Assembly: GCA_963664825.1 (NCBI GenBank)
Contig: OY761614.1
Location: forward strand, 2,048,001-2,112,000
Direction of reading: 5' to 3'
Origin: an uncultured Holophaga sp.
Lineage (GTDB): Bacteria > Acidobacteriota > Holophagae > Holophagales > Holophagaceae
DNA: 64,000 nucleotides
Shown: in pieces, positions 13,649 through 37,942 of the stretch
Position numbering within the stretch: position 1 is the first letter of the stretch
Layout of the letters: the number at the start of each line of letters is the position of its first letter
The notes under the pieces: generated by a model
Seen by the model: the letters and a program-made list of their open reading frames with translations, nothing else
Databases searched by the model: none
Told to the model about the DNA's origin: nothing
Position numbers and translations under genes: made by a program

Positions 13649-14324
13649 CGCAGCGCTCCGCGGCCAGGGTGGCGAACCGGTAGGCCAGCCAGATCAGCAG
13701 GGCCGCCAGGAGGACTTCCGCGTAGGGCGCGGCGGCCCCCAGATGGGCCCAGGCCCGCTGAGGAGCCTGGAGGAAATGAATGAACCTCTGGGTGATGGCG
13801 GATTCCTTCGCCAGATCTTGGGCCGGCATGTTCGCCGCGGCCCAGCCTTCCATGAGAAGCATCGTGATGACAAAGGAGAGGCCGCCCTTCTGACCAAAGC
13901 GCAGATGGAAGGGGAGCTGGGCGGCGAAGGCCCAGAGGAAGATCCAGGGCAGCGTGCAGCTCAGGTGGGCCTTGGCCAGTGCCCGGAAACCGAAGTGATG
14001 GAGGCCCGGAAGGGTCACGGCCAGGAAGAACAGCGCGCCGACGAGTAGAGCCTCCGCCCAGCGCAGTCTTACCAGTTCGTGTCGGGCGATGGGCAGGGCC
14101 AGGACATCCCCCAGTGTGCCCGCCTGGAGTTCCCGGGCGTGCAGCAGGAAGGGCAGGAGGCATCCCAGGCCGAAGGCGATGCGACCCAGCAGAGGCACGA
14201 GAAATTTTGCTTCCATCTGGGGATGGCTGAGGAAGCTCACGGGCACCATGATCAGCACGATCACGCTCAACAGCAGCAGGGCATCCCTGTGGAGCCTCCA
14301 GTCCCGCAGGAGCAGTTCACGCAT
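13641..14324 (-). CDS. ABC-2 type transporter permease
   Basis: Hydrophobic segments with ALPIARHELV and LPFHLRFG motifs. Translationally coupled to both neighbours. Confidence 0.75.
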   Translation of the reverse strand: MRELLLRDWRLHRDALLLLSVIVLIMVPVSFLSHPQMEAKFLVPLLGRIAFGLGCLLPFLLHARELQAGTLGDVLALPIARHELVRLRWAEALLVGALFFLAVTLPGLHHFGFRALAKAHLSCTLPWIFLWAFAAQLPFHLRFGQKGGLSFVITMLLMEGWAAANMPAQDLAKESAITQRFIHFLQAPQRAWAHLGAAAPYAEVLLAALLIWLAYRFATLAAERCDA

Positions 14325-15276
14325 GGGCCCGCCTCCCCAGCAGCACCAGGATGTCTTCCAGGCTGGGGCGCTCCACCAGGGCGTTTTCTCCGAAGTGTTC
14401 CCGGGCGCCCTGCACGTTGTCGGTGAGGGCCTCGAAGCCGAGAGGGGTCTCCCGCAGGCCCTGGAAGGCCCGGCGCACCGGTTCGCTCAGGAGCTCCAGG
14501 CCTCCCTTCACTAGGCCCCAGCGCTCCTTCACGCTGTCCTGGGTGTCCGAGAGGACGACCTTCCCGTCCCGCAAAAAGGTGACGTGATCGGCCAGGCCTT
14601 CCAGGTCGGAGGTGATGTGGGTGCTGAAGAGGATGGCCCGGCGCTCGTCCAGGTTCTCGGAAAAACGCTGGAGCAGCTCCCGGCGGAATACTGGATCCAG
14701 GCCCGTAGTGGGCTCGTCCAGGGCCAGCAGCTCCCAGTCCCGGCTCAGGGCCAGGGTGAGGGCGAAGCGCGTGCGCTGGCCCAGGGAGAGTGCCTTGGAT
14801 TTCTTGCGCGGATCCAGGCCGAAATCGGCCATCAGGCCCTTCCAGCGGGCCTCATCGAAATCCGGATAGAAGGGCGCGTAGACCTCCTTGAGGGTGGAAA
14901 GCCTCACACCCGGCGCGTATTTGGGCTCGTCGGGGACATAGACGATGCGGCGGCGCAGTTCGGGGCCCTCCTGGACCAGGTCCCGACCCAGGAAGCTCAT
15001 GGTGCCGCCATCCAGGCGCACGAGACCGAGGATGGCCTTGATGAGAGTGGTCTTGCCCGCCCCATTGGGGCCCAGCAGGCCCATCAGGGTGCCGGGCTGG
15101 AGCGTGAGGCTGGCGCCATCCAGTGTGAAGGCCTTGTAGCGTTTGGTGAGGCCGCGGAGCTGGAGGATGGACGTGATGGCCGGGCTTTGCCCGGTCATCG
15201 CGTGGGGGTCAAAGGGGGGACGTCGCGACCCAAGGGAGCAGGCGGTCCCCCTTTTCGGGACTGGTTCATCAGCCAT
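14317..15276 (-). CDS. ABC transporter ATP-binding protein, N-terminus overlapped by an 82-bp repeat
   Basis: GPNGAGKTT, LSLG and LALDEPTTGLDP motifs. ATG 15276 overlaps the gntR stop, and an alternative ATG lies inside the repeat. Confidence 0.9.
   Translation of the reverse strand: MADEPVPKRGTACSLGSRRPPFDPHAMTGQSPAITSILQLRGLTKRYKAFTLDGASLTLQPGTLMGLLGPNGAGKTTLIKAILGLVRLDGGTMSFLGRDLVQEGPELRRRIVYVPDEPKYAPGVRLSTLKEVYAPFYPDFDEARWKGLMADFGLDPRKKSKALSLGQRTRFALTLALSRDWELLALDEPTTGLDPVFRRELLQRFSENLDERRAILFSTHITSDLEGLADHVTFLRDGKVVLSDTQDSVKERWGLVKGGLELLSEPVRRAFQGLRETPLGFEALTDNVQGAREHFGENALVERPSLEDILVLLGRRAHA
15180..15261. repeat. 82-bp palindromic dispersed repeat, copy 1
   Basis: 75/82 identical to 31576-31657 by manual alignment. 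Hairpins are ccgggc-ttt-gcccgg and aaaggggggac...gtcccccttt. Confidence 0.95.
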
Positions 15277-20715: not shown

Positions 20716-23241
20716 ATGGTTGTGCCCGCGCCCTCCTCGCTCCACCTGGATCTGCTGGCCCCCCTTTCGGGGCTCATGGTGCCCCTGGCTGAGGTGCCTG
20801 ACCCGGTTTTCGCCCGCAAATTGGTGGGCGATGGCGTCTCCATCGATCCCACCTCCTGGGAGCTCCTGGCGCCACTTGCGGGCACGGTGACTCAGTTGCA
20901 TAGCGCCCACCATGCCATCGCCATCACTTCTCCCGAGGGTGTGGAGGTGCTGCTGCACCTGGGCCTGGATACGGTGATGCTCAAGGGGGAAGGCTTCACA
21001 CCCAAGGTCCGCCTGGGCGACCGGGTGGAAGCCGGCCAGCTCCTCATCACCTTCGATCCCGTTCGGGTGGGGCGCCAGGCCAGGAGCCTGCTCACCCAGA
21101 TGGTGCTGCCCGGAGGCAGACAGATTCTGTCCATGGAGGCTGCTACCGGCCTGGTGGTGGCTGGGCGAGACAGGGTCTTGAGGCTGGAACTCAAGAGTAC
21201 CGGCCCGGAGGCGACTCCCCAGAGCGGTGAAACGGTGACTTCAGGGCCCGTAGTGGTGCGCAATCGCTCCGGCCTTCACGCCCGGCCCGCGGCGATCTTG
21301 GTGGCCGCCGCCAAGCACTTTAGCGCCACGATCCATCTGGTGCGGGGTGGCGAGGAAGTGAACGCCAAGTCCGTGGTGGCCATTCTCGCCTTTGAGGTCA
21401 AGGAGGGGGACACCCTGCAGGTGAAGTCCACGGGCCCAGATGCCCGGGAGGCTTCCAGTGCCCTGGCGGCCCTGCTGGCCGAAGGTCGGGATGAGGCCCC
21501 AGGATCGGTGGTCGTGGCGCCTTCGGTGCCAAGTCCCAAGGCCCTTGCCCTGGGCGTGGGCGAACTGGGAGGGATGGCTGCGGCCCCTGGTTTGGCGGTG
21601 GGCCACGTGTTCCAGTACCGGCCCGAAATTTTGGCCGTGGTGGAGCTTGGCCAGGGTCCGGCCCAGGAAGGGGCCCACCTGGAGGCCGCCCTGGGCGAGG
21701 CCGGCTCCCAGCTCGAGGCCATCAAGGCCCGGATGCAGGCCACCGCCGATCTGAGCCTAGTGGGCATCCTGACGGCCCACCAGGAACTCCTGGCCGATCC
21801 CGAGCTCCTGGAACAGGCCCGGGCCTTGATTTCCCAGGGCAAGAGTGCGGCCTTCGCCTGGAAGGAAGCCTTCAATGGGGGAGCGGCGAGGCTGAGTGCG
21901 TTGAATTCGCCCCTGCTGCGGGAGCGGGCCAATGATCTCCGGGATGTGGGGCGCCGGGTTCTGGCCCTGCTCACGGGTTCCACCCAGGCCGGGCCAGAGA
22001 TGCCCGCGGACGCGATCCTCATCACCGAGGAGCTGCGCCCTTCGGAGGCGGCCCAGCTGGACCCCGCCCAGGTGCGGGGCCTCTGCACCACCAAGGGCGG
22101 CCCCACAGGCCACGTGGCCATTCTGGCCCGGTCCCTGGGGATCCCGGCCATCTGCGGCATCGATGAAGCGGCCCTCAGCCTGCCCGGGCAGACCCTGGTG
22201 GTGCTGGATGGCAACCGGGGGATCCTGAACCGCCAACCCAGCGAATCCGAATTGGGCCAGGCCCGCCAGCAGATCGAATTGCAACTCGTACAGCGGACCC
22301 GGGACAGGTCGGCGGCCCAAAAGCCCGCGGTGACTTTGGACGGTTTTTGCATCGAAGTGGCCGCCAATATCCGCAATGCCAAGGAAGCTCAGGAAGCCAT
22401 CGCCGCTGGAGGAGACGGCGTGGGGCTGCTGAGGAGTGAGCTGCTCTTCCTGGATCGCTCCGATCCTCCCACCGAGGAGGAACAGGCCGAGGCCTACAGC
22501 GCCGTGGCCAGGATCCTTGGCCGGGACCGCAAGCTGGTGATCCGCACCCTGGATGTGGGGGGAGACAAGCCCCTGGCCTACCTGCCCCTGCCCCAGGAGG
22601 CCAACCCCTTCCTAGGCATGCGGGGGATCCGGGTGAGTCTGGACCAGCCCGAGCTCTTCCGCACCCAGTTGAGGGCCGTCCTGCAGGCCGCGCCCCTGGG
22701 GGATCTGCATCTCATGTTCCCCATGATCGCCACCCTGGAAGAGCTGCGTGCCGCCAAGGGGATCCTGGCCGAAGAGGCCAAAACCCTGAATCGCAGGATC
22801 AAGGTGGGCGTGATGATCGAAGTGCCCTCGGCGGTGCTGATCGGGGACGCCCTGGCTCAGGAAACGGATTTCTTCTCCATCGGCAGCAACGATCTCACCC
22901 AGTACTGCCTGGCCATGGACCGGGGCCACCCCAAGCTGGCTCCACAGGCCGATGGGCTTCATCCCAGTGTGCTCAAGTTGATCGGTCTCACCGTGGAGAG
23001 CGCCCACCGGCACGGCAAGTGGGTGGGCATCTGCGGCGGACTGGCCTCGGAGAGTATCGCCCTCCCGGCGCTGCTGGGTCTGGGCCTCGACGAACTCTCC
23101 GTGAGCGTGCCCGCCATCGGCGCGGTCAAAGCCCGGATCTCCCGATTGAAGAAGGCCGAATGCGAAATCCTGGCCCGGGAGCTCCTGAGCCTGGGCACGG
23201 CCGCGGAAGTGCGGGAGCGCCTCACTGCCTTTGCCGAATAA
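20716..23241 (+). CDS. ptsP: Multidomain PTS phosphoryl-transfer protein (EIIA-Glc / HPr / Enzyme I fusion)
   Basis: EIIA motifs VPDPVFA and LLHLGLDT, HPr motif GLHARPAA, and EI motifs GPTGHVAILAR, RTLDVGGDK and SIGSNDLTQY. Confidence 0.93.
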   Translation: MVVPAPSSLHLDLLAPLSGLMVPLAEVPDPVFARKLVGDGVSIDPTSWELLAPLAGTVTQLHSAHHAIAITSPEGVEVLLHLGLDTVMLKGEGFTPKVRLGDRVEAGQLLITFDPVRVGRQARSLLTQMVLPGGRQILSMEAATGLVVAGRDRVLRLELKSTGPEATPQSGETVTSGPVVVRNRSGLHARPAAILVAAAKHFSATIHLVRGGEEVNAKSVVAILAFEVKEGDTLQVKSTGPDAREASSALAALLAEGRDEAPGSVVVAPSVPSPKALALGVGELGGMAAAPGLAVGHVFQYRPEILAVVELGQGPAQEGAHLEAALGEAGSQLEAIKARMQATADLSLVGILTAHQELLADPELLEQARALISQGKSAAFAWKEAFNGGAARLSALNSPLLRERANDLRDVGRRVLALLTGSTQAGPEMPADAILITEELRPSEAAQLDPAQVRGLCTTKGGPTGHVAILARSLGIPAICGIDEAALSLPGQTLVVLDGNRGILNRQPSESELGQARQQIELQLVQRTRDRSAAQKPAVTLDGFCIEVAANIRNAKEAQEAIAAGGDGVGLLRSELLFLDRSDPPTEEEQAEAYSAVARILGRDRKLVIRTLDVGGDKPLAYLPLPQEANPFLGMRGIRVSLDQPELFRTQLRAVLQAAPLGDLHLMFPMIATLEELRAAKGILAEEAKTLNRRIKVGVMIEVPSAVLIGDALAQETDFFSIGSNDLTQYCLAMDRGHPKLAPQADGLHPSVLKLIGLTVESAHRHGKWVGICGGLASESIALPALLGLGLDELSVSVPAIGAVKARISRLKKAECEILARELLSLGTAAEVRERLTAFAE

Positions 23242-23274
23242 ATACGATTCGAATACCTGCGCTGGAGTCGGGCC

Positions 23275-25077
23275 ATGTCCACGTCTTTCCTGAGCGTCCT
23301 CAAGAATCTGAACCTGTTCGGTGCCCTTCAGAAGATCGGCAAGGCCCTGATGCTGCCGGTGGCCGTGCTGCCCGTGGCGGGGCTCCTGCTGGGCATCGGC
23401 GCGGCTCACTTCGGCATCATCCCCGCCCAGGTCTCGAACATCATGAAGGCCTCCGGGGACGTGATCTTCGGCAATCTGCCCCTGATATTTGCCATCGGCG
23501 TGGCGTTGGGGTTTACCGATAACGACGGCGTCGCAGGCATCGCGGCCACCGTGGGTTTCCTGGTGATGAACGCCACCCTGGGCGTGATGGCGGGCATTTT
23601 CAAGGTGGCGCCGTCTTTGGTGATGGGCATTCCCTCCATGGAGACCGGCGTCTTCGGAGGCATCCTGGCCGGGGGCCTCGCGGCCTTCATGTTCAACCGC
23701 TACTACCGGATCGCCCTGCCCACCTACCTCGGGTTCTTCTCGGGCAAGCGCTTCGTGCCCATCATCACCGCCGTGGGCGCCATTGTCCTGGGGGTGGTCC
23801 TTTCGGTGCTGTGGCCGCCGGTGCAGGCGGGCATCAACCACTTCTCCCACTGGGCCGCGGTCGCCAGTCCCCGTTCTGCGGCCACGCTCTATGGATTCGT
23901 GGAGCGGCTCCTGCTGCCCTTTGGCCTTCACCACATCTGGAACGTGCCCTTCTTCTTCGAGAGCGGGTCCTTCCATGAGGCCTCGGGTCGGGTCGTGAGC
24001 GGCGACATCAACCGCTTCTTCGCCGGGGATCGCACGGCGGGCATCCTGGCCGGGGCTTTCCTGTTCAAGATGTTCGGCCTGCCAGGCGCAGCCCTTGCCA
24101 TCTGGCAGAGCGCCAAGCCCGAGAACCGCGTGCGGGTGGGTGGCATCATGATTTCGGCGGCGCTCACGTCCTTCCTCACGGGCATCACCGAACCCATCGA
24201 GTTCTCCTTCATGTTCGTGGCCCCGGTCCTCTACCTCGTCCATGCGCTGCTGGCGGCCTCCACCCAGTTCCTGGCAAACACTCTGGGCATGCACATGGGC
24301 TTCACCTTCTCCCAGGGCGGCATCGATTTCGTGATGTTCAATGTCCTGGGTCCAAATGCCCAGAGATGGTGGCTGGTGCTGGTGCTGGGACCGGCCTATG
24401 GCGCGCTCTACTACGGCCTCTTCCGGTGGTCGATTCCGTTCTTCAACCTCAAGACGCCGGGGCGGGAAGATATCGACTCGGCGGCGGCCTATGCCACGAG
24501 TGGCGATCAGCGGGCCCGGGAACTGGTGCTGGCCTTCGGGGGGCGCAGCAATATCACGGCCTTGGATGCCTGCATCACCCGGCTCCGGGTCTCCGTGCGG
24601 GAGCCCGGGCGGGTGGACCGGGCCAGGCTCAAGGCCATGGGGGCTGCCGAAGTGCTCCAGGTGGGCAATAGCCAACAGGCGATCTTCGGACCGGCTTCCG
24701 AGAACCTCAAGACCGATATGCAGATCTATCTGAAGGCCGCCGGGGCCGAGGCCGAGGGCCCGGTGGGCAATGCCCCTCCAACGCCCCACCCCATGCCCGA
24801 CTTGCCTCCTCAAGTGGCTCCCATTCCTGAATCCATGGGGCGGCGGATCGAAAGCCTTCGGGCGGCCCTGGGTGGAGCGGGCAACATCAAAGCCCTGGAA
24901 GCCGTTGCCCTCACACGTCTGCGTGTGAGCCTTGCAGACCCGGGGCTGATGGACGCCAAGGCTCTGGAGTCCGCCGGAGTGAAGGCGGTCATGATTCTGC
25001 CCGGGCAGCAGCGGGATCTCATCGTCGGCCTGGAGGCCGAGCAACTGGCAGGAGGGCTGGCCCCTGGGGAAAACTGA
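23275..25077 (+). CDS. ptsG: Glucose-family PTS permease EIICB with a second C-terminal EIIB-like domain
   Basis: [42 protein letters not shown] and DACITRLR motifs. Confidence 0.9.
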
Positions 25078-27960: not shown

Positions 27961-30567
27961 ATGGAATTCACTCTTAACGGCAGACAAACCCGCTACGAGG
28001 GGAGCCCCGAGCTCGTCCTGCTCACCTACCTGCGCGACGTGGCCGGGCTGATCAGTCCCAAGGATGGATGTTCGGGTGAGGGCGTCTGCGGATGCTGCAC
28101 GATCCTGGTGGATGGGGCCTCCCGCCTGAGCTGTCGCATGAAGATGAAGGACGTTGCGGGAAAGCACCTCGTCACCTTGGAGGGCCTCGCCGCTCGGGAG
28201 CGGGAGGCCTTCGCCGACGCCTTCGTGCTCAAGGGGGGCGTCCAGTGCGGTTTCTGTACGCCGGGCATCGTGATGAAGGCCAAGGCCATCCTGGACAAGA
28301 ATCCCAATCCCACTCGGGACGAGATCACCCAGGGGCTTTCGGCGAATCTGTGTCGCTGCACGGGCTACAAGAAGGTGGTGGATTCCATTGTCTGTGCCGC
28401 CGAAGCGCTCCGCAGCGGCAGTCCCGTTCCCGTGGCCGAAGGCACGGGGCGGGTCGGCACGCGCCACGGGAAATACACGGCCCGGGAGGCGGTGCTGGGT
28501 GAGCGCGTTTTCGTGGGGGACATGAAGGAGCCCGGCATGCTCCACGGCGCCCTGAAATTTTCGGAGCATCCGAGGGCGAAGGTGCTCCGCATAGATATCT
28601 CCCAGGCGCTTCGTGTGCCCGGCGTCCAGCGCATCCTCCTGGCGGGGGATGTGCCTGGAAAGCGTTTCATGGGTTCCATCTTCCAGGATTGGCCCGTGCT
28701 GGTGGCAGAGGGGGAGATCACCCGCTACATCGGGGATGTGCTGGCCAGCGTGGCGGCCACCACCCTGGAAGCCGCCCGGGAGGCCGTCTCCAGGATCCAG
28801 GTGGAATACGAGGTCCTGGAGCCCGTGACCGATATCTTCGAGGCCCTGGAACCCTCGGCCCCCCAGATCACGGAGAAGGGCAATATCCTCCACAGCGCGG
28901 AGGTGCGCGTGGGCGATGCGGAAGCGGCCTTGGCTAAATCCGCCTTCGTGACCCGGAACCGCTTCAGCACCCAGCGCGTCGAGCACGCCTTCCTGGAGAC
29001 GGAGGCCACCCTGGCCCTGCCCTGGGTGAAGGATGGACAGCGGGGGATCAAGGTCTTCAGTTGTAGCCAGGGCGTCTACGAGGACCGCCATCAGTTGGCC
29101 CTGGTGCTGGACCTGCCCAAGTCCCGGGTGAATGTCGTGCAGGTGCAGAATGGGGGCGGCTTCGGCGGCAAGGAGGACCTGACCACCCAGGCCCATGCGA
29201 CCCTGCTGTCCTGGTTCACGGATAGACCGGTGCGGGTGCGCCTGAATCGGAAGGAGTCGCTGCGCATGCATCCCAAGCGCCACCCCTTCGTGATGGACTA
29301 TGCCGTGGGCTGTGACCGGGATGGCCTGCTCACCGCCATGGTGGTGACCATGCACTCGGATTCCGGCGCCTACGCCAGCGTGGGCTCCGCGGTGCTGGAC
29401 CGGGCCGTGTCCCATTCCGCTGCCACCTACACCGTGCCCAATGTGCATGTGAAGGGCACGGCGGTGATCACCAACAACGTCCCCTGCGGCGCCTTTCGCG
29501 GCTTCGGCGTCAACCAGTCGAATTTCGCCTTCGAATCCTGCCTGGACGAACTCTGCCGCATGGGGGGCTTCGACAGGTGGAAGTTCCGCTGGGACAACGC
29601 CCTGGTGGATGGCAAGACGACGGCCACCGGGCAGATCCTGGAATCTGGCGTGGGCGTGCGCGCCTGCCTGGAGGCCCTGAAGGATCGCTTCTATCAGGCC
29701 AAATGCGCGGGTCTGGCGGCGGCCATGAAGAATACCGGCATCGGATGTGGCATGCCGGACTTCAGTCACGCCAAGATTGTCATCAAGGGCCCCCAATGCG
29801 TGGAGGTCCATCACGGCTGGTGCGAGATGGGGCAGGGCTCCTTCACCATGGCTGTCCAGACCCTCGTGGAGGAGACGGGCATCGATCCTGCCTTCATCGA
29901 TGTGATCGTCGCGACCGATGAGGAAGCCGAGTCGGGCATGACGACCGGCTCCCGGGGCACCTCCCTCCTCGCCAACTCCGTGCGCGTGGCCTGCCAGGAC
30001 TTGAAGCGCGAAATGGCCTCGGGGAAATCCTTGTCAGATCTCGTGGGCCGCGAATTCCGCGGAAGCTGGGTCTGCGACTGGACCGTGGCCCCCGGCCAGC
30101 AGCCTCCGGCCGGGAAGCCCATCGTCACCCACTACTCGTACGGCTACGCCGCGCAGCTCGTGGAGCTGGACGAGACGGGAAAGATCACGCGCATCACCGC
30201 CGCCCACGACGCAGGACGCATCATGAATCCCACCCTCTTCGAGGGACAGATCGAAGGCGCCCTCCATATGGGCCTGGGCTACGCCCTCACCGAGGAATTC
30301 CCGTTCAAGGACGGTTTTCCTGTTTCCTTCAAGATGGCCGATCTGGGCATCCTCCGGCCGAAGGATATGCCTCCCATGGAGGTGATCGGCATCGAGGTGC
30401 CCGATGCGGTGGGCCCCTATGGCGCCAAGGGGGTGGGCGAGATCGGCTTGGTGCCCACCGCCGCGGCCGTGGCCAACGCCCTCTGCCAGTTCGATGGATT
30501 GCGCCGCACGACCCTCCCCCTGCGGGAGATGAAGGCCCTCGGCAAGAAGAACAAGGGAGTCTCGTAA
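27961..30567 (+). CDS. xdh: Selenium-dependent xanthine dehydrogenase-type molybdenum hydroxylase (2Fe-2S + Moco fusion)
   Basis: GCSGEGVCGCCT, QCGFCTPG, CRCTGY, GGGFGGKE, GAFRGFG and GAKGVGE motifs. Lies in a ygfK/ygeY/ygeW/ssnA context. Confidence 0.9.
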   Translation: MEFTLNGRQTRYEGSPELVLLTYLRDVAGLISPKDGCSGEGVCGCCTILVDGASRLSCRMKMKDVAGKHLVTLEGLAAREREAFADAFVLKGGVQCGFCTPGIVMKAKAILDKNPNPTRDEITQGLSANLCRCTGYKKVVDSIVCAAEALRSGSPVPVAEGTGRVGTRHGKYTAREAVLGERVFVGDMKEPGMLHGALKFSEHPRAKVLRIDISQALRVPGVQRILLAGDVPGKRFMGSIFQDWPVLVAEGEITRYIGDVLASVAATTLEAAREAVSRIQVEYEVLEPVTDIFEALEPSAPQITEKGNILHSAEVRVGDAEAALAKSAFVTRNRFSTQRVEHAFLETEATLALPWVKDGQRGIKVFSCSQGVYEDRHQLALVLDLPKSRVNVVQVQNGGGFGGKEDLTTQAHATLLSWFTDRPVRVRLNRKESLRMHPKRHPFVMDYAVGCDRDGLLTAMVVTMHSDSGAYASVGSAVLDRAVSHSAATYTVPNVHVKGTAVITNNVPCGAFRGFGVNQSNFAFESCLDELCRMGGFDRWKFRWDNALVDGKTTATGQILESGVGVRACLEALKDRFYQAKCAGLAAAMKNTGIGCGMPDFSHAKIVIKGPQCVEVHHGWCEMGQGSFTMAVQTLVEETGIDPAFIDVIVATDEEAESGMTTGSRGTSLLANSVRVACQDLKREMASGKSLSDLVGREFRGSWVCDWTVAPGQQPPAGKPIVTHYSYGYAAQLVELDETGKITRITAAHDAGRIMNPTLFEGQIEGALHMGLGYALTEEFPFKDGFPVSFKMADLGILRPKDMPPMEVIGIEVPDAVGPYGAKGVGEIGLVPTAAAVANALCQFDGLRRTTLPLREMKALGKKNKGVS

Positions 30568-33500
30568 TGGAAAAAGCATTCCGCCCCGCCTCGCTGGAAC
30601 GCCTGGCCCGCTGGATCTTCGAGGAACTGGACGGCCGGGACACGGTCCTGGGCATCCCCAAGGCCCATATCCAGATCCCCAGTGCCCGAATGGCCTCGCC
30701 TATGTTCGGCCGCACCCTGGCCGCTCCCCTGGGCGTGGCCGCCGGGCCCCACACCCAGCTCGCCCAGAACATCGTTTCCGCCTGGCTCTGCGGGGCGCGC
30801 TTCCTGGAACTCAAGACCGTCCAGATCCTCGATGAGATCCAGGTCAGTCGTCCCTGCATCGATTCCGCCGACGCCACTTTCAATTGCGAGTGGTCCCAGG
30901 AACTGAAGCTGGAAGAATCCTTCGACGAATACCTCAACGCCTGGGTGCTGGTGCATGCCCTGGCCCATCGCTTGGGACTGAAGGATCCCGGCACCCTCTT
31001 CGCCATGAGCGTCGGCTACAACCTGGAGGGCATCCAGAACCCCCGGGTGCAGCGCTTCATCGCCTCCATGCGCGATGCCAGCCACGCCCTGCCCGCGGCC
31101 ATTGCAGCGGTGGCCAAGGCCTACCCGGCTGTGCGGGAGATTGAGATCCCCCACCAGATCTCCGACCACATCACACTCTCCACCATGCACGGATGTCCCC
31201 CGGCGGAAATCGAGCGCATCGCCCGCTACCTGCTGGTGGACCTGGGCGTGAACACCTGGGTGAAGCTCAATCCCACTCTGCTCGGCCCCGAGCGGCTGCG
31301 GGGCATCCTCAGTGACACCCTCGGCTTCGAGATCCAGGTGCCGGACGCCGCCTTCGAGCACGATCCCAAGTTCGAGGACGCCATGGCCATGGTGAAGAAC
31401 CTGGCCAAGGTCGCCCAGGGCCTGCCCCAGCACTTCGGCCTCAAACTCTCCAATACGCTGGAAGTGGTGAACCACCGGCCCATCTTCCCCTCCGGCGAAA
31501 AGATGATGTACATGTCCGGGCGCTCCCTGCATCCGCTCACGGTCAACCTGGCCAAGCTGGTCACGGACGCGCTATCCGGGCTTTGCTCGGACAGCGCGTG
31601 GGGGTCAAAGGGGGGACATCGCGACCCACGGGAGCAGGCGGTCCCCCCTTTCCGGACAGAAGCCCTGGATGGCCAGGTGCCCATCAGCTTCTGCGGCGGT
31701 GCCGACGCCACGAACTTCGCGGGTCTGGTGGCCGACGGCCTCGGGCCGGTCACCGTCTGCACCGATCTCCTGAAACCCGGAGGCTACGCCCGGCTCCAGC
31801 AGTATCTGGTGAACCTCGATTCGGCCATGGTGGAGGCCGGTGCCAATAGCCTGGAAGCCTTTGTCCAGGCCCGTTCCGGCGGCCAGGGCGCCCGCTTCAA
31901 TCTGGCCCGCCACGCCGAATGCGTCCTCGATGACGAGCGCTACGCGCGCCGGGAGAAGCCCCTCCAGTTCAAGGGAGAGCGGGCCCTCGGAACCTTCGAT
32001 TGCATCGCGGCGCCCTGCCAGGAGGCCTGTCCCACCCACCAGAATATTCCCGACTACCTCTGGCTGGTGGCCCACGGGAAGCCTCGGGAGGCCATGGAGG
32101 TCATCCTGCGCACCAATCCCCTGCCGGGGGTGACGGGCAATATCTGCGATCACATCTGCACGGATCGCTGCGTGCGGAATTTCTTCGATGCGCCCCTGGG
32201 CATCCGGGAGATCAAGCGCTTCGCCTTCGAGCAATGCTCGCTGCTTGAAAAGGGCCATGCACCCCTGGAACAGGCGGGCACTCCCAAGGGCGTGAAGGTG
32301 GCCATCGTGGGGGCAGGTCCCGCGGGTATGTCGGCGGCCTACTACCTGGCGAAGATGGGCTTCGAGGCCGAGATCTTCGAGGCCAAGCCCCAGGTGGGCG
32401 GCATGGTGGGCGGCGCCGTGCCGCGCTACCGGCTGGAGGACAAGACTCTCGAACTCGATCTCGAAAGGCTGCGCCAGCTGGGCGTGAAGATCCATCTGGG
32501 GAAGGCCCTGGGCAGGGATATCTCCCTCGAGGCCCTGCGCAAGGAACACGCCTATCTCTTCCTGGGAGTCGGCGCCCAGAAGGGCAAGCGCCTGGGCATC
32601 CCAGGGGAAGAGGCCGAGGGTGTGCTGGACGCCCTTGAATTCCTGGACAAGGTTCGAAACGAGCAGCGCCTGGATCTGGGTCGGAACATCCTCGTGGTGG
32701 GCGGCGGCAATTCGGCCATGGACGCGGCGCGCTCCGCCCGGCGGATGGCCAAGAATGCTCAGGTCTCCCTGGTCTATCGCCGCACGCGCTCGGAGATGCC
32801 CGCCGATCCTGAAGAAGTGCGGGATTGTCTCCTGGAGGGCATCGCTCTGAAAGCTCTCTTCGCGCCAAGCCGGGTGGTGGTGGAGAAGGGCAGGGTGGTG
32901 GGCCTGGCCTGCACGCCCATGACCCTGGGTGAGCCGGACGCCTCGGGACGCCCGAAGCCCGTGCCTTCGGGAGAGCCCGAGGTGATCCTCCCCGCAGACA
33001 CGATCATTCCCGCCATCGGCCAGGAGACCGCGCTGGATTTCCTGGTGGGCCTGGGTGTGCAGCAGCATCGGAATGGCACGCTGGTGGTGGACCCCGAGAG
33101 CCGGGAGACGAGCGTCCCCGGCGTCTTCGCCGGGGGGGATGTGGCCCGAGGGCCGGCCTCGGTCATCAAGGCCATCGCCGATGGGCGGGCCGCCGCCGAG
33201 GCCATCGGCCGCAGGCATGGCGTCTTGCCGCTCCCGGAACCCGCGCTCGCCAAGGGCCTGGGGCCGGTGGCGATGCTGGAGAAGAAATCCCGCAAGGTCG
33301 CGGCCCAGACCGTGCCCGTCCTGCCCGTGGGGCAGCGCGGCGGTTTCGATCAGGTTCTCCACGGCCTTGCTTCCGAGGCCGCCGTGGCAGAGGCCAGCCG
33401 CTGCCTGGACTGCGACGAGATGTGCAGCCTCTGCGTCACCGTCTGTCCCAATCGCGCCAATCGCGCCTATGAGATGGCTCCCCTCTCCCTGGAATTGCCC

Positions 33501-33962
33501 GAGCTGGTGGTGCGGGGGGGGCAGGCGGTCCCGGAGGGCCTGCGGCCCTTCAGGGTCGAACAGGGCATCCAGACCCTCAATATCGGCGACTTCTGCAATG
33601 AGTGCGGCAACTGTGCCACCTTCTGTCCAACTGTCGGGGCTCCCTACCGGGATAAGCCGCGCTTCTGGATCGATGCCGAAGGCTTCGCGGAGGCCACTGG
33701 CGATGCCTTCCGGTGGGATTCGACAGATTCCAGTCGGGTCCTGGAGGCGCGGCTGGAGGGTCGTACCCACCGCCTGGAAGTCCGGGGCAGCGTTGCGGAA
33801 TATCGCTCCGATCTCCTCTGTGCCCGCTTCGAGGCCGACACCTGGCGCTTCCTCGGCGCTCAAGTCCTGGGGAAGGCCGCCGAGGGTCAGGTTCTGGATC
33901 TCTCCCCCTGCGCCACCCTGATCGCCCTCCTGAGCGCCCGGGAGGCCGTCCCCTCCGCCTGA
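30567..33962 (+). CDS. ygfK: YgfK-type Fe-S flavoprotein oxidoreductase ('putative selenate reductase')
   Basis: GVAAGPHTQLAQNI, ELKTVQILD, MYMSGR, LLKPGGY, GAGPAG, GGGNSAMD, VCPNRAN and CNECGNC motifs. Confidence 0.93.
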   Translation: MEKAFRPASLERLARWIFEELDGRDTVLGIPKAHIQIPSARMASPMFGRTLAAPLGVAAGPHTQLAQNIVSAWLCGARFLELKTVQILDEIQVSRPCIDSADATFNCEWSQELKLEESFDEYLNAWVLVHALAHRLGLKDPGTLFAMSVGYNLEGIQNPRVQRFIASMRDASHALPAAIAAVAKAYPAVREIEIPHQISDHITLSTMHGCPPAEIERIARYLLVDLGVNTWVKLNPTLLGPERLRGILSDTLGFEIQVPDAAFEHDPKFEDAMAMVKNLAKVAQGLPQHFGLKLSNTLEVVNHRPIFPSGEKMMYMSGRSLHPLTVNLAKLVTDALSGLCSDSAWGSKGGHRDPREQAVPPFRTEALDGQVPISFCGGADATNFAGLVADGLGPVTVCTDLLKPGGYARLQQYLVNLDSAMVEAGANSLEAFVQARSGGQGARFNLARHAECVLDDERYARREKPLQFKGERALGTFDCIAAPCQEACPTHQNIPDYLWLVAHGKPREAMEVILRTNPLPGVTGNICDHICTDRCVRNFFDAPLGIREIKRFAFEQCSLLEKGHAPLEQAGTPKGVKVAIVGAGPAGMSAAYYLAKMGFEAEIFEAKPQVGGMVGGAVPRYRLEDKTLELDLERLRQLGVKIHLGKALGRDISLEALRKEHAYLFLGVGAQKGKRLGIPGEEAEGVLDALEFLDKVRNEQRLDLGRNILVVGGGNSAMDAARSARRMAKNAQVSLVYRRTRSEMPADPEEVRDCLLEGIALKALFAPSRVVVEKGRVVGLACTPMTLGEPDASGRPKPVPSGEPEVILPADTIIPAIGQETALDFLVGLGVQQHRNGTLVVDPESRETSVPGVFAGGDVARGPASVIKAIADGRAAAEAIGRRHGVLPLPEPALAKGLGPVAMLEKKSRKVAAQTVPVLPVGQRGGFDQVLHGLASEAAVAEASRCLDCDEMCSLCVTVCPNRANRAYEMAPLSLELPELVVRGGQAVPEGLRPFRVEQGIQTLNIGDFCNECGNCATFCPTVGAPYRDKPRFWIDAEGFAEATGDAFRWDSTDSSRVLEARLEGRTHRLEVRGSVAEYRSDLLCARFEADTWRFLGAQVLGKAAEGQVLDLSPCATLIALLSAREAVPSA
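31576..31657. repeat. 82-bp palindromic dispersed repeat, copy 2, in frame within ygfK
   Basis: 75/82 identical to 15180-15261. Translated as SGLCSDSAWGSKGGHRDPREQAVPPFR. Confidence 0.95.
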
Positions 33963-34167: not shown

Positions 34168-35382
34168 ATGACCACCCTCTACGAAAAGATCGCCCAGCGC
34201 GCCAAGCAGCTCGAAGGCGAAACCACGGCCTTCCTCATGGACATGGTCCGCGTGCCCTCCTTCAGCGGGAAGGAAAAGGACGTCATCCAGGTCATCAAGG
34301 CCGAGATGGAGAAGGTGGGCTTCGACGAAGTGCGCATCGACGGCCTGGGCAACGTCATCGGCCGCATCGGCTCAGGCCCCCGAGTCATCGCCTTCGACGC
34401 CCACATCGATACGGTCTATCCCGGCGACATGAGCCTCTGGGACTTCGATCCCTTCACCCCCAAGGTCGAGGATGGCCAGGTCTGGGGCCGGGGCACCGTG
34501 GACCAGGAGGGCGGCATGGCCTCCATGGTGACGGCCGGGAAGATCATCAAGGAGATGGGCCTGAACGACCAGTTCACCCTGCTCTTCACGGGCACCGTGA
34601 TGGAGGAGGACTGCGACGGCCTCTGCTGGACCTACCTCATCAAGGAGGAGAAGATCCGGCCTGAGCTGGTGGTCATCACCGAACCCACCAATATGAACAT
34701 CTACCGCGGCCACCGGGGCCGCATGGAGATGCAGGTCCAGGTCAAGGGCCTCAGCTGCCACGGCAGCGCGCCTGAGCGGGGCGATAACGCCATCTACAAG
34801 ATCAGCCGCGTGGCCCTCGAGATCGAGAAGCTCCACCAGCGTCTGGCCGTGGATCCCTTCCTAGGCAAGGGCAGCGTCTGCGTCTCCCAGGTCTTCTTCA
34901 CGGGCCCCAGCCAGTGCGCCGTGCCCGATAGCGCGACCCTCAGCCTGGACCGCCGCCTCACCGCAGGCGAGACCAAGGAGAGCGCCGTGGCCGAAGTGAA
35001 GGACGCCGCCGCCCGGGCCGGATATGCCGATGCCGAGGTGACGATCCTGGAATACCGCGAGCCCGCCTACACGGGCCTGGTCTACCCCATGGAGAAGTAC
35101 TACCCCACCTGGGTGCTCGCCGAGGACAGCCCCTGGCTCAAGGACGCCACCGCCGCCTACACCCAGGCCCTGGGCAAGGCGCCCTTCGTGGACAAGTGGA
35201 CCTTCAGCACCAATGGCATCGCCATTGCCGGGCTGGAAGGCATCCCCTGCCTCGGTCTCGGGCCCGGCAACGAAGTGCTGGCCCACTTCCCCAACGAGCA
35301 CTGCCCCCTGGAACACCTCTCGGGCGCCTCGGCCTTCTATGCGGCCCTCGTGGCCAAGCTCAACGGGAAGGCCGATCTATGA
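34168..35382 (+). CDS. ygeY: YgeY family M20 metallohydrolase
   Basis: DAHIDTV, GRGTVDQEGG, VMEEDCDGLCW, GHRGRME and WTFSTNG motifs. Confidence 0.93.
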   Translation: MTTLYEKIAQRAKQLEGETTAFLMDMVRVPSFSGKEKDVIQVIKAEMEKVGFDEVRIDGLGNVIGRIGSGPRVIAFDAHIDTVYPGDMSLWDFDPFTPKVEDGQVWGRGTVDQEGGMASMVTAGKIIKEMGLNDQFTLLFTGTVMEEDCDGLCWTYLIKEEKIRPELVVITEPTNMNIYRGHRGRMEMQVQVKGLSCHGSAPERGDNAIYKISRVALEIEKLHQRLAVDPFLGKGSVCVSQVFFTGPSQCAVPDSATLSLDRRLTAGETKESAVAEVKDAAARAGYADAEVTILEYREPAYTGLVYPMEKYYPTWVLAEDSPWLKDATAAYTQALGKAPFVDKWTFSTNGIAIAGLEGIPCLGLGPGNEVLAHFPNEHCPLEHLSGASAFYAALVAKLNGKADL

Positions 35383-36593
35383 CCCCTTTCCTCTACCGCT
35401 GCACCGAATGTGGACGCGAATACACCCGGGAGCTTGTACGCTACCTCTGCCCGGAGTGCGGTCAGGCCTACCATCCGGGCATGCCCCTCAAGGGCGTGCT
35501 GGAGGTGGTCTTCGACTACAAGGCCATCGGTTCCAAGTTCGACAAGAACTGTCCGGACTGGAACCTCTTCTGCGCGGTGGAGCCTGAATTCCATCCTCCC
35601 CTGGCTGTGGGCAATACGCCCCTGACCCGGGCCGATCAGTTCGGAGCCGAACTGGGCCTTGAGAATCTCTGGGTGAAAAATGATGGCTTGAACCCCAGCG
35701 GCAGCCTCAAGGATCGCGCCTCCTTCCTGGTAGTGGCCGAGGCCCGACGCCTGGGCGAGAAGCGCATCGTGACGGCATCTACGGGCAACGCGGCCTCGGC
35801 CCTGGCTGCGGTCTGCGCCAGCACCGATCGGGAGGCCCTGATCTTCGTGCCCGAGAAGGCCCCCAAGGCCAAGCTCGTGCAGATGGTGCTCTACGGCGCC
35901 AGGGTCATCCCCGTGAAGGGCACCTACGACGATGCCTTCCGGCTCTCCCTGGAATTTACCGAAAAGCGCGGGGGCCTCAACCGCAATACCGCCTACCATC
36001 CGCTCACCATCGAAGGCAAGAAGACCGTGGGCCTGGAGATCTGGGCCCAGCTCGGTTTCCAGGTGCCGGACGCGATCCTGGTCTCCGTGGGGGATGGCGT
36101 CATCCTGGCGGGCCTGCACAAGGCCTTCCTGGATCTTCAGCGTGCGGGCCTGATCGCGCAGTTCCCCAGGCTCATCTGCGTCCAGGCGGAAACCTCCGAC
36201 GCCATCCACAACTACATCCAGACCGGTCAATACGCGGATGCCTCGAACCCCACCACCCGGGCCGATTCCATTTCAGTGTCCTGCCCCAGCAACGCCCACT
36301 GGGCCCGGCGCGCAGTGCTGGAGAGCGGAGGCTGCTCACTGCTGGTCAGTGACGCCGAGATCCTGGAGGCTCAGGCCCAGATGGCCCGCACCACGGGCAT
36401 CTTCGGGGAGCCCGCCGCCGCCACAGCCGCCGCAGGGCTCGTGAAACTCCAGGCCGGTCCTTCGCGCCTGGAAGCCGGACCCCGCATCGTCATCCTGGCC
36501 ACGGGGCACGGCCTGAAGGATGTGGAGGCCCCCCTCTCCCGCATCTCCATCCCCCAAGCCATCGAGCCCCGTCTGGACGCGGTTCAAGCATGA
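35379..36593 (+). CDS. Threonine synthase-like PLP enzyme (fold type II) with an N-terminal zinc ribbon
   Basis: CTECG..CPECG, NPSGSLKDRA, ASTGNAA, EGKKT and TGHGLKD motifs. ATG overlaps the ygeY stop. Confidence 0.85.
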   Translation: MTPFLYRCTECGREYTRELVRYLCPECGQAYHPGMPLKGVLEVVFDYKAIGSKFDKNCPDWNLFCAVEPEFHPPLAVGNTPLTRADQFGAELGLENLWVKNDGLNPSGSLKDRASFLVVAEARRLGEKRIVTASTGNAASALAAVCASTDREALIFVPEKAPKAKLVQMVLYGARVIPVKGTYDDAFRLSLEFTEKRGGLNRNTAYHPLTIEGKKTVGLEIWAQLGFQVPDAILVSVGDGVILAGLHKAFLDLQRAGLIAQFPRLICVQAETSDAIHNYIQTGQYADASNPTTRADSISVSCPSNAHWARRAVLESGGCSLLVSDAEILEAQAQMARTTGIFGEPAAATAAAGLVKLQAGPSRLEAGPRIVILATGHGLKDVEAPLSRISIPQAIEPRLDAVQA

Positions 36594-37942
36594 AGACGCG
36601 GGTCCGGAATGGTCGCCTTGTGCTCGAGGATCGCATCGAGCCCCTGGATATCCTGGTGGAAGACGGGCGCATCCTGGCCCTATTGCCTCCGGGGAGCGAG
36701 GCGGCTGCCGACCGCGTGATCGACGCCGCAGGGGGCTATGTCCTGCCGGGCTTCATCGATTTTCATGTGCACCTGGATGACCGCATCGGGCCCTTCTACC
36801 TGGCCGATACCTATGAGAGCGGCTCCCGGGTGGCCCTCCAAAATGGCATCACCACCCTCTGCAGCTTCGTCACCCAGGGGCCCGGGGAGACGCTGATCCA
36901 GGCCCTGAAGACGGCTCGGGCCAAGGCCGAGGGCCGAAGCCACGCCGATATATGCTGGCACCTCACGCCCACGCGCTTCGAGACGGAAGACTGGACGGAT
37001 CTCGAAGGCCTGGTGGCCGCGGGCTACGGGACGCTCAAGTTCTATACGACCTACAGGCCCGCGGGACTCTTCGCCTCCCGGGCGCGCCTGGACGAACTCT
37101 TCAGGCGTTTGGGCCCCCTGGGGGCGCGCTTCCTGGTGCATTGCGAGGACGACGCTTGGATGGCGGCGGTGGATGCCGGGGGCCTGGATCTCTCCAAACC
37201 CAGCTCCCACGGATCCCTCCGCCCTGAGCGGGCCGAACTCCTGGCCGTCGAGGCCCTGTTGGGTCTGGCCGCGGCCTCTCAAACCCCCCTCCATGTCGTC
37301 CATGTTTCGACCCTCGCCGCGGCCGAAGCGCTGCTGCGCGTCCGGGGCAAGCTCGATGTCACCTGCGAGACCTGTCCCCAGTATCTCTGGCTGGACGAGA
37401 CCTGGCTGGATCGCCCGGACGGCCATCGCTGGCTCTGTTCGCCGCCCCTGCGGGGAGACCGGGCGCGCTTTCGCGCCATGGCCCGGGCCGGAGCCTTCGA
37501 TTTCTTGGCCACGGATCACTGCGCCTTCCTCCGCCAGGATAAGGACGCTTGGGATCACCGGGATGTCCGCACGGCCGCCAACGGCCTCGGGGGCTTGGGC
37601 GCGCTGCCCCATCTCGCGTGGAAGCTCTGGGAGGACGACCCAGATCGCGCCGCCCTGGAATTGGCGAGGCGCTTGAGCCGCAACCCAGCTCGTTGCGCCG
37701 GACTGGAGGATCGCAAGGGTGCGATCCGTCCCGGCTGGGATGCCGATCTGGTGGTGCTGGATCCGGAGGGTCCCGAAAGGCCCCTGGTTTCTTCCCTGTC
37801 CGATGTCCACGAGACCTATCCGGGCTTCACCTCTCGGCTGGCCTTCCGCCATGTGCTGCTCCGGGGGGAGCCGGTCGTGGCCGACGGCAGGCTGCTTCAT
37901 CCCGAATCTCCAGCTGGGATCCTTCTCCAGCCTCAACCCTGA
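36590..37942 (+). CDS. Cyclic amidohydrolase (dihydropyrimidinase/hydantoinase, HyuA-like)
   Basis: PGFIDFHVH, LKFYTTY, VHCED, VVHVST, ETCPQYL and ATDHC motifs. Confidence 0.85.
   Translation: MKTRVRNGRLVLEDRIEPLDILVEDGRILALLPPGSEAAADRVIDAAGGYVLPGFIDFHVHLDDRIGPFYLADTYESGSRVALQNGITTLCSFVTQGPGETLIQALKTARAKAEGRSHADICWHLTPTRFETEDWTDLEGLVAAGYGTLKFYTTYRPAGLFASRARLDELFRRLGPLGARFLVHCEDDAWMAAVDAGGLDLSKPSSHGSLRPERAELLAVEALLGLAAASQTPLHVVHVSTLAAAEALLRVRGKLDVTCETCPQYLWLDETWLDRPDGHRWLCSPPLRGDRARFRAMARAGAFDFLATDHCAFLRQDKDAWDHRDVRTAANGLGGLGALPHLAWKLWEDDPDRAALELARRLSRNPARCAGLEDRKGAIRPGWDADLVVLDPEGPERPLVSSLSDVHETYPGFTSRLAFRHVLLRGEPVVADGRLLHPESPAGILLQPQP

Follow-up and report, generated by a model that had tools for sequence, protein, structure and literature searches.

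The ygfK gene of an uncultured Holophaga species carries, in frame, a copy of a palindromic repeat dispersed through its genome, and this is very probably a real insertion that the encoded protein tolerates as a loop. On balance we think it likely that the repeat is a non-coding, two-hairpin element of the Holophagaceae, which is translated as a tolerated loop and which arrived as single-stranded DNA at CnGA tetranucleotides via an HUH (Y1-type) enzyme.

The insertion in ygfK

All coordinates refer to the window, i.e. the whole 64,000-nt stretch of DNA that was analysed, unless a contig is named.

30567..33962, + strand: ygfK (putative selenate reductase subunit), the host gene, an open reading frame of 1131 aa
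31567..31659, + strand: the repeat in ygfK, a net 93-nt in-frame insertion by alignment with homologues
31564..31567, + strand: left CnGA tetramer CGGA, the putative target site
31657..31660, + strand: right CnGA tetramer CAGA

The product of ygfK scores 885.5 bits against TIGR03315 (YgfK; cut-off 835.3), and the gene is preceded by a selenium-dependent xanthine dehydrogenase gene and followed by ygeY. A threonine-synthase-like gene (35196-36590) and a dihydropyrimidinase-like gene (36590-37942) extend this xdh-ygfK-ygeY cluster; elsewhere in the window, at 20716-25077, there is a fused IIA-HPr-EI phosphotransferase gene with a glucose PTS IIBC gene adjoining.

A preliminary description, made from the letters alone, had read the segment as a 31-residue in-frame insert in an open ygfK, and this is borne out: the frame holds exactly 31 extra codons, placed after T333 (the register 31568-31660 is equivalent). 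The broad occurrence of a homologous segment in orthologues, named beforehand as evidence against an insertion, is not seen. The segment is missing in 16 of the 16 other homologous loci aligned to ygfK (the alignment used the 17 of 30 loci with this domain, one of them the window itself), and the anchor-to-anchor distance is 19 residues in 117 of 119 database homologues vs 50 in this YgfK, the other two lacking an anchor and hence not being scorable. Among 120 proteins the insert is thus found only in this genome. Short-read contigs from runs X1, X3 and X5, of which X1 and X3 may represent the source sample, span both junctions without mismatch, so that the insert is no assembly artefact; runs X8-X19, with small word shares, were left out as evidence. 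Joints lacking the insert have different letters and come from relatives without it.

The degenerate TDAL/TEAL duplication, 93 nt apart, that had been proposed to bracket the insert survives only in part: a CnGA tetramer is present at both ends, but a duplication of 11 nt is ruled out, as nothing beyond this tetramer is repeated. The two tetramers, CGGA and CAGA, differ at the third (wobble) base of the Thr333 codon. The D-A-L that follows Thr333 is encoded by the first bases of the repeat itself and completes the host helix, and some YgfK homologues have TDAL naturally; together these features may explain the survival of the ygfK copy.

In an AlphaFold2 model of YgfK residues 1-473 (99 sequences, pTM 0.85), the fold of which matches the DPD and DHODH barrels, pLDDT falls below 50 for residues 340-368, between a helix (319-337) and a strand (373-375), so that the insert is predicted to form a disordered loop joining helix to strand in the barrel. 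A search of solved structures by sequence with residues 1-478 returned no match. In such barrels the helix-to-strand loops face opposite the active site. Low pLDDT is expected where alignment support is lacking, and the model thus shows only that the core can form around the insert; read in this way, it agrees with the earlier suggestion of a tolerated loop, which is probably correct.

A two-hairpin repeat family and its copies in genes

15171..15263, + strand: second repeat copy in the window, antisense within the opening codons of a gene for an ABC-transporter ATPase
14317..15276, - strand: ABC ATPase gene; its ATG overlaps the upstream gene's end
31567..31599, + strand: hairpin 1 of the ygfK copy, 15 pairs with a 3-nt loop, 12 of the 15 pairs covarying over 59 copies
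31607..31651, + strand: hairpin 2, with an outer stem of 11 pairs (31607-31617 with 31641-31651), 97% of cells paired
31620..31635, + strand: inner mismatched mini-hairpin with a 3-nt loop, 13 bases of which match the class 3 TnpA-Y1 REP core (4-nt loop there)

The likeness between 31576-31657 and 15180-15261 that had first drawn attention to the repeat was confirmed at 75 of 82 positions, as was the existence of a dispersed palindromic family: a profile gives 33 matches, spread over 29 places of the genome, and not one in the reversed genome, and the closest blast match of the ygfK copy is 91% like it. Of 61 related genomes, 21 have a match to the 105-nt query, all of them Holophagaceae, and the exact repeat pattern occurs in 16 of 301 Acidobacteriota genomes, every one of them again in this family. 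In 14 of the 64 parts of GTDB, scanned with the pattern, the matches listed (80 titled loci of 117 returned) belong to Holophaga, Geothrix, Holophagaceae, Holophagales and unplaced Acidobacteria, along with three Solibacteraceae and one Eubacteriales by label. These searches point to a range almost confined to the Holophagaceae, and on their showing the window itself would be placed in that family. A distant blastn search of plasmids gave no match, a pattern search of viral contigs gave no copies, and Rfam gave four chance-level matches, none close to threshold. The cultured strain Holophaga foetida DSM 6591 has near-identical repeat cores at differing sites (L141, L143, L158), a pattern that suggests a recent expansion.

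The unit is laid out as hairpin 1, a G-rich spacer, and hairpin 2 around the small mismatched hairpin. Over 59 copies (57 of the 90 distinct locus copies and the two window copies) 92.7% of the cells are paired, and two-sided change is seen in 198 cells, as against 62 for shuffled sequence and 18-37 for slid controls, with the caveat that kinship among the copies inflates the covariation and overstates the p-values. On the repeat's own strand, G-T pairs number 50 vs 21 for A-C in the same set; the G-T:A-C ratio is 17:6 for copies lying along transcription and 35:14 for those against it (Fisher p=1.0 for the difference). As this excess is equal in both directions of transcription, the fold would appear to act on one strand of the DNA rather than in the mRNA. 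Copies also form tandem arrays with a period of 90-99 nt. Two long variants in this genome (G000), at G000:C1:1893941-1894090 and 3415284-3415440, hold about 60 extra bases with palindromes of their own within hairpin 2, the loop of which is thus able to hold cargo. Another dispersed family, having only the tip of hairpin 1 in common with the repeat, lies near positions 259057, 1574348, 1813274, 2405665 and 2549067 of the same contig.

With gene calls from a simple purpose-made caller, 10 of the 29 places fall within called genes, two of them at C-termini and eight internally. All eight internal places are in frame, free of stops and multiples of three in length, five being sense and three antisense, in several reading frames. 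Each was compared with three to five same-genus orthologues (more for ygfK), in which the inserts are absent; DinG-like and HisH-like in the following lines are labels assigned in this analysis.

ygfK: +31 residues
DinG-like helicase: +103 to +105 residues, three tandem copies
Pyridine-nucleotide-disulphide reductase: +33 residues (+32 in the sister species G004)
Radical-SAM protein: +31 residues
HisH-like amidotransferase: +70 residues (+30 in G004)
SAM methyltransferase: +33 residues (+29 in G004)
DnaJ-type zinc finger protein: a partial copy within a variable stretch
AcrB-type transporter: +31 residues

The reductase, HisH-like and methyltransferase inserts are common to G004, the proteins being about 80% identical, and in all three the frame has been retained through later indels; the reading frame of the methyltransferase insert differs between G000 and G004. 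To judge from these sequences, what is conserved in shared inserts is the reading frame and not the peptide sequence. The AcrB-type gene has a further insert, also in frame and about 25 residues long (L346, G000:C1:1134933-1135037), which four orthologues lack; it derives from another palindromic sequence, to which the rest of the genome offers one weak match.

Among 140 places in relatives, three are in frame by homology, namely in a glycogen-debranching region, a glycosyltransferase gene and gatB (L200), and four more by coding score, in HypF (L146), FecR, MeaB-linked and nickel-insertion proteins; five of the eight rows of the homology test were dropped, since in these the subject was the same site in another filled copy. 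Random disruption of frames by other copies, the further observation that had been held to speak against the proposal, was not encountered, the search being incomplete in that the homology test is blind to genes without a homologue in a small database. Where a coding frame reaches the repeat, it ends at most three codons from the edge in 25 of the 34 places listed (counted by eye), and the right end of the repeat reads TGA on the opposite strand. In YgfK, HisH, a radical-SAM enzyme and the AcrB-type and GatB proteins, the inserts show where added residues are naturally permitted.

The site of the second window copy is filled in G004 and empty in G007 and G006. We infer that the repeat-derived part of the ABC ATPase is translated, and an ATG within the repeat could serve as an alternative start; the upstream gene is one which we take to be GntR-like.

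Two readings would keep the peptide out of a working YgfK. Its removal or bypass at the RNA level, giving a protein without the peptide, would draw on the stable predicted RNA fold of the repeat (z -2.2 to -4.9). We nonetheless regard it as extremely improbable: copies occur in both orientations, and the internal ones remain multiples of three and stop-free through later indels, for which splicing gives no need, and no Rfam family comes close to threshold. Metatranscriptome run X20 contains a 258-nt contig (31576-31833) that is identical to the DNA and runs unspliced across the 3' junction at depth 6, being a single contig of unknown strand for which DNA carry-over is possible, and no joint skipping the insert was found in the four runs compared. 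Thus, one RNA contig with the insert joined to ygfK offers nothing in favour of RNA-level removal, one of the options of the preliminary description; the repeat peptide is probably translated. The other reading, that ygfK was inactivated by the insertion and owes its open frame solely to the recency of the event, fits the presence of the insert solely in this genome among the 120 proteins, and is nevertheless very unlikely given that the 1131 codons have neither stop nor frameshift, the product scores above the family cut-off and the invariant columns of the barrel are retained. Moreover, the copy is only 91% like its closest match, and analogous inserts have been kept since the split from G004, with one in the gatB gene of a relative.

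Ends, putative target site and proposed route of movement

The left end bears CnGA in 70 of 120 full copies (column frequencies C70 A70 G96 A86), and CAG is the right end of many copies. Three empty sites were tried, of which one was clean (L033 is filled in both genomes and L054 is unalignable): here, G007 has a single CAGA and the filled site of G008 has CAGA, 89 nt and CAGA, again a net gain of 93 nt. In head-to-tail arrays the neighbouring units have one tetramer in common. The copy length is 93, 96 or 99 nt in 36 of the 55 copies with measurable ends (of the 120), counts to which subfamilies contribute non-independently. Some junctions depart from a plain CnGA rule, that of the radical-SAM copy resembling a 5-nt duplication and L033 having about nine repeated bases, and the likeness of left flank to right tail is slightly over that of shuffled sequence (1.97 vs 1.70). 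A reading of the ends as CGTC tags was ruled out, since the + strand has CnGA at these ends and the - strand CTG; the repeat has CGTC on the - strand alone, in a position 3' of hairpin 1.

The proposed mechanism builds on the two covarying hairpins, the CnGA at both ends and the net 93 nt gained at a site with one CnGA. A fixed and oriented tetramer, two hairpins on the same strand and head-to-tail arrays are together compatible with the single-strand route of HUH enzymes, for which we consider the case evenly balanced; a class 3 TnpA-Y1 enzyme in particular is a tentative and rather doubtful candidate. On this route the fold would matter on one fixed strand of the DNA regardless of the direction of transcription, and a class 3 TnpA-Y1-like enzyme would excise or copy the unit between two CnGA sites. 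The unit would then be joined to a CnGA of the host, giving rise to head-to-tail arrays with one common tetramer. Selection would purge frame-breaking or misplaced copies and retain those in loops, the sequence of the peptide having no role of its own. The HUH (Y1-type) enzyme is seemingly no longer carried by these genomes. A bolder version, which we hold to be doubtful, makes the repeat a composite passenger of class 3 TnpA-Y1, i.e. a REP core and two flanking hairpins between CnGA sites moving as a unit of 93, 96 or 99 nt; it would reveal CnGA as the cut and target site, rebuild TGA stops when antisense, and have its lengths selected for frame, thereby seeding protein loops across the Holophagaceae.

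The 13-base class 3 REP core matches the genome six times, all six inside the repeat, and its reversed pattern gives five scattered matches, while a profile from 53 class 3 REPs does not rank the copies (one of 428 weak genome matches and none of four in loci). A class 3 enzyme query recovered from G109, the single query used, found no such enzyme in 133 family genomes, the one weak match being an IS200-type gene. A complete class 3 TnpA-Y1 gene lies at L302:1557-2135 (G109), flanked by CnGA REPs in tandem along with repeats of another type, and has 42 related metagenome loci, many with the same REP. Y1 domains (PF01797) are absent from this genome and present in 20 of 61 relatives, never near the repeat, and none of 121 genomes has a RAYT above the NF047646 cut-off. 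The surroundings of Y1, class 3, IS91, DUF559 and IS110 genes, 198 loci in all, contain neither the repeat nor either of its halves, and the repeat was likewise not found in 42 loci with class 3 genes or in 20 with class 3 REPs. By clustering and motif scan, no recurrent neighbour or transposase stands beside the 140 places; a weak IS110 match over a copy in G005 was rejected as the end of an ordinary gene. The copies show no replichore bias (15 of 29, with the origin placed from GC skew only).

Other movers could have produced the same outcome for the proteins. Were the repeat a MITE, mobilised by a transposase of the DDE type with a 3-4 bp target duplication and a short, imperfect terminal inverted repeat, CAG(A) would flank filled sites and stand single in the empty site, as is indeed observed; the first eight bases pair imperfectly with the last eight in many copies, and longer flanking repeats exist at a few. 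Yet the tetramer that recurs has a fixed sequence and orientation rather than varying, the conserved stems are internal and not terminal, the fold is better on one strand, head-to-tail units have a single tetramer in common and, within the reach of the clustering and motif scan, a transposase adjoins none of the 140 places, all of which makes a MITE unlikely. A passenger of rolling-circle (IS91-like) or IS110-like elements with a four-base core, in which the arrays are rolling-circle products, would account for the tandem period of 90-99 nt; both families use short fixed cores, and IS91-type genes are present in 43 and IS110-type genes in 45 of the 133 family genomes, with one each in this genome. 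This origin is distinctly unlikely, as 30 IS91 and 30 IS110 loci contain no whole or half copies and the repeat-rich G007 and G008 have no match to either family. Set beside these, arrival by an HUH enzyme remains the route that we prefer.

Comparison with known systems

The Rickettsia palindromic elements (RPEs; Ogata 2000, 2002, as summarised in PMC10969869 and PMC3733652) are described as short palindromic repeats of one lineage, about 150 nt long, nearly half of them intragenic and often in frame in unrelated housekeeping genes. The Holophagaceae repeat is alike in being dispersed in one lineage and inserted in frame in unrelated protein genes by a mover that is not known. Compared by description, it differs in its phylum, its length of 93-99 nt and its CnGA ends, and also in having no one conserved peptide, being read in several frames, on either strand, with orthologous inserts that differ in frame. 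No Rickettsia are among the 80 GTDB loci listed with the repeat pattern (14 of 64 parts). The preliminary analogy to a protein-parasitising family in the manner of RPEs thus stands for the in-frame behaviour but not for the habitat, which is not mainly proteins: about a quarter of the places (8 of 29) are intragenic in this genome and about 5% (about 7 of 140) in relatives, vs nearly half for RPEs.

GTAG/CGTC REPs are hairpins found mostly between genes and near stop codons, with some in frame as 20-30 residues (Di Nocera 2013, PMC3733652), and CGTC REP families too are given there without a known enzyme (PMC3733652); Figures 2 and 9 of that paper may bear on family identity. The repeat differs from them in lacking an unpaired 5' GTAG/CGTC tag ahead of a 6-13 bp stem, in having stems of 11-15 pairs vs 8-9 and in being a fixed two-hairpin unit. 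A repeat-flanked RAYT gene, as in REPINs and GTAG REPs, was not found in 121 genomes or the enzyme loci. The motif GGGG[AT][CG]A[CG] of TIRtrons (TIRYT) occurs in the left arm of some copies of hairpin 2, with no Y1 gene between or beside the arms. Unlike MITEs, the repeat lacks terminal inverted repeats of 15-30 bp, having about eight imperfect terminal pairs and long internal stems, and the 4-nt CAGA at the one clean empty site could pass for a target duplication, from which a fixed cut site is indistinguishable in appearance. To IS200/IS605 derivatives it is similar in its two subterminal one-strand hairpins, the tetranucleotide at its left and right ends and the strand-specific fold; it differs in that its target equals the right end tetramer, in having no autonomous partner and in the absence of a visible lagging-strand bias.

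Class 3 TnpA-Y1 genes are reported from Planctomycetes and Acidobacteria, flanked by hairpins with a CnGA foot (Quentin 2018, PMC6006769), and REPs of subclass 2.4 are there described inside tnpA genes (PMC6006769). The repeat and class 3 REPs have in common the CnGA foot, Acidobacteriota hosts and both dispersed and tandem copies, and also, by pattern match though not by profile, a near-identical mismatched core of 13 bases. Class 3 REPs are given as about 26-30 nt long and flank the enzyme gene, whereas in the Holophagaceae repeat a larger stem encloses the core and a second hairpin adjoins it, the loop of the core mostly has 3 nt, and the enzyme was not found in the 133 family genomes. The CnGA ends and the apparent likeness to class 3 REPs make the movement of RPE-like repeats directly testable in vitro.

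A description of the repeat was not found in the literature searched, most of it outside subscription papers. In-frame hairpin repeats as a phenomenon are already in print for RPEs and REPs; the Holophagaceae repeat is a new family within this intragenic REP/RPE-like kind, and it extends the phenomenon to the Acidobacteriota, with filled and empty sites, shared inserts that keep the frame while the peptide changes, and a putative fixed four-base target.
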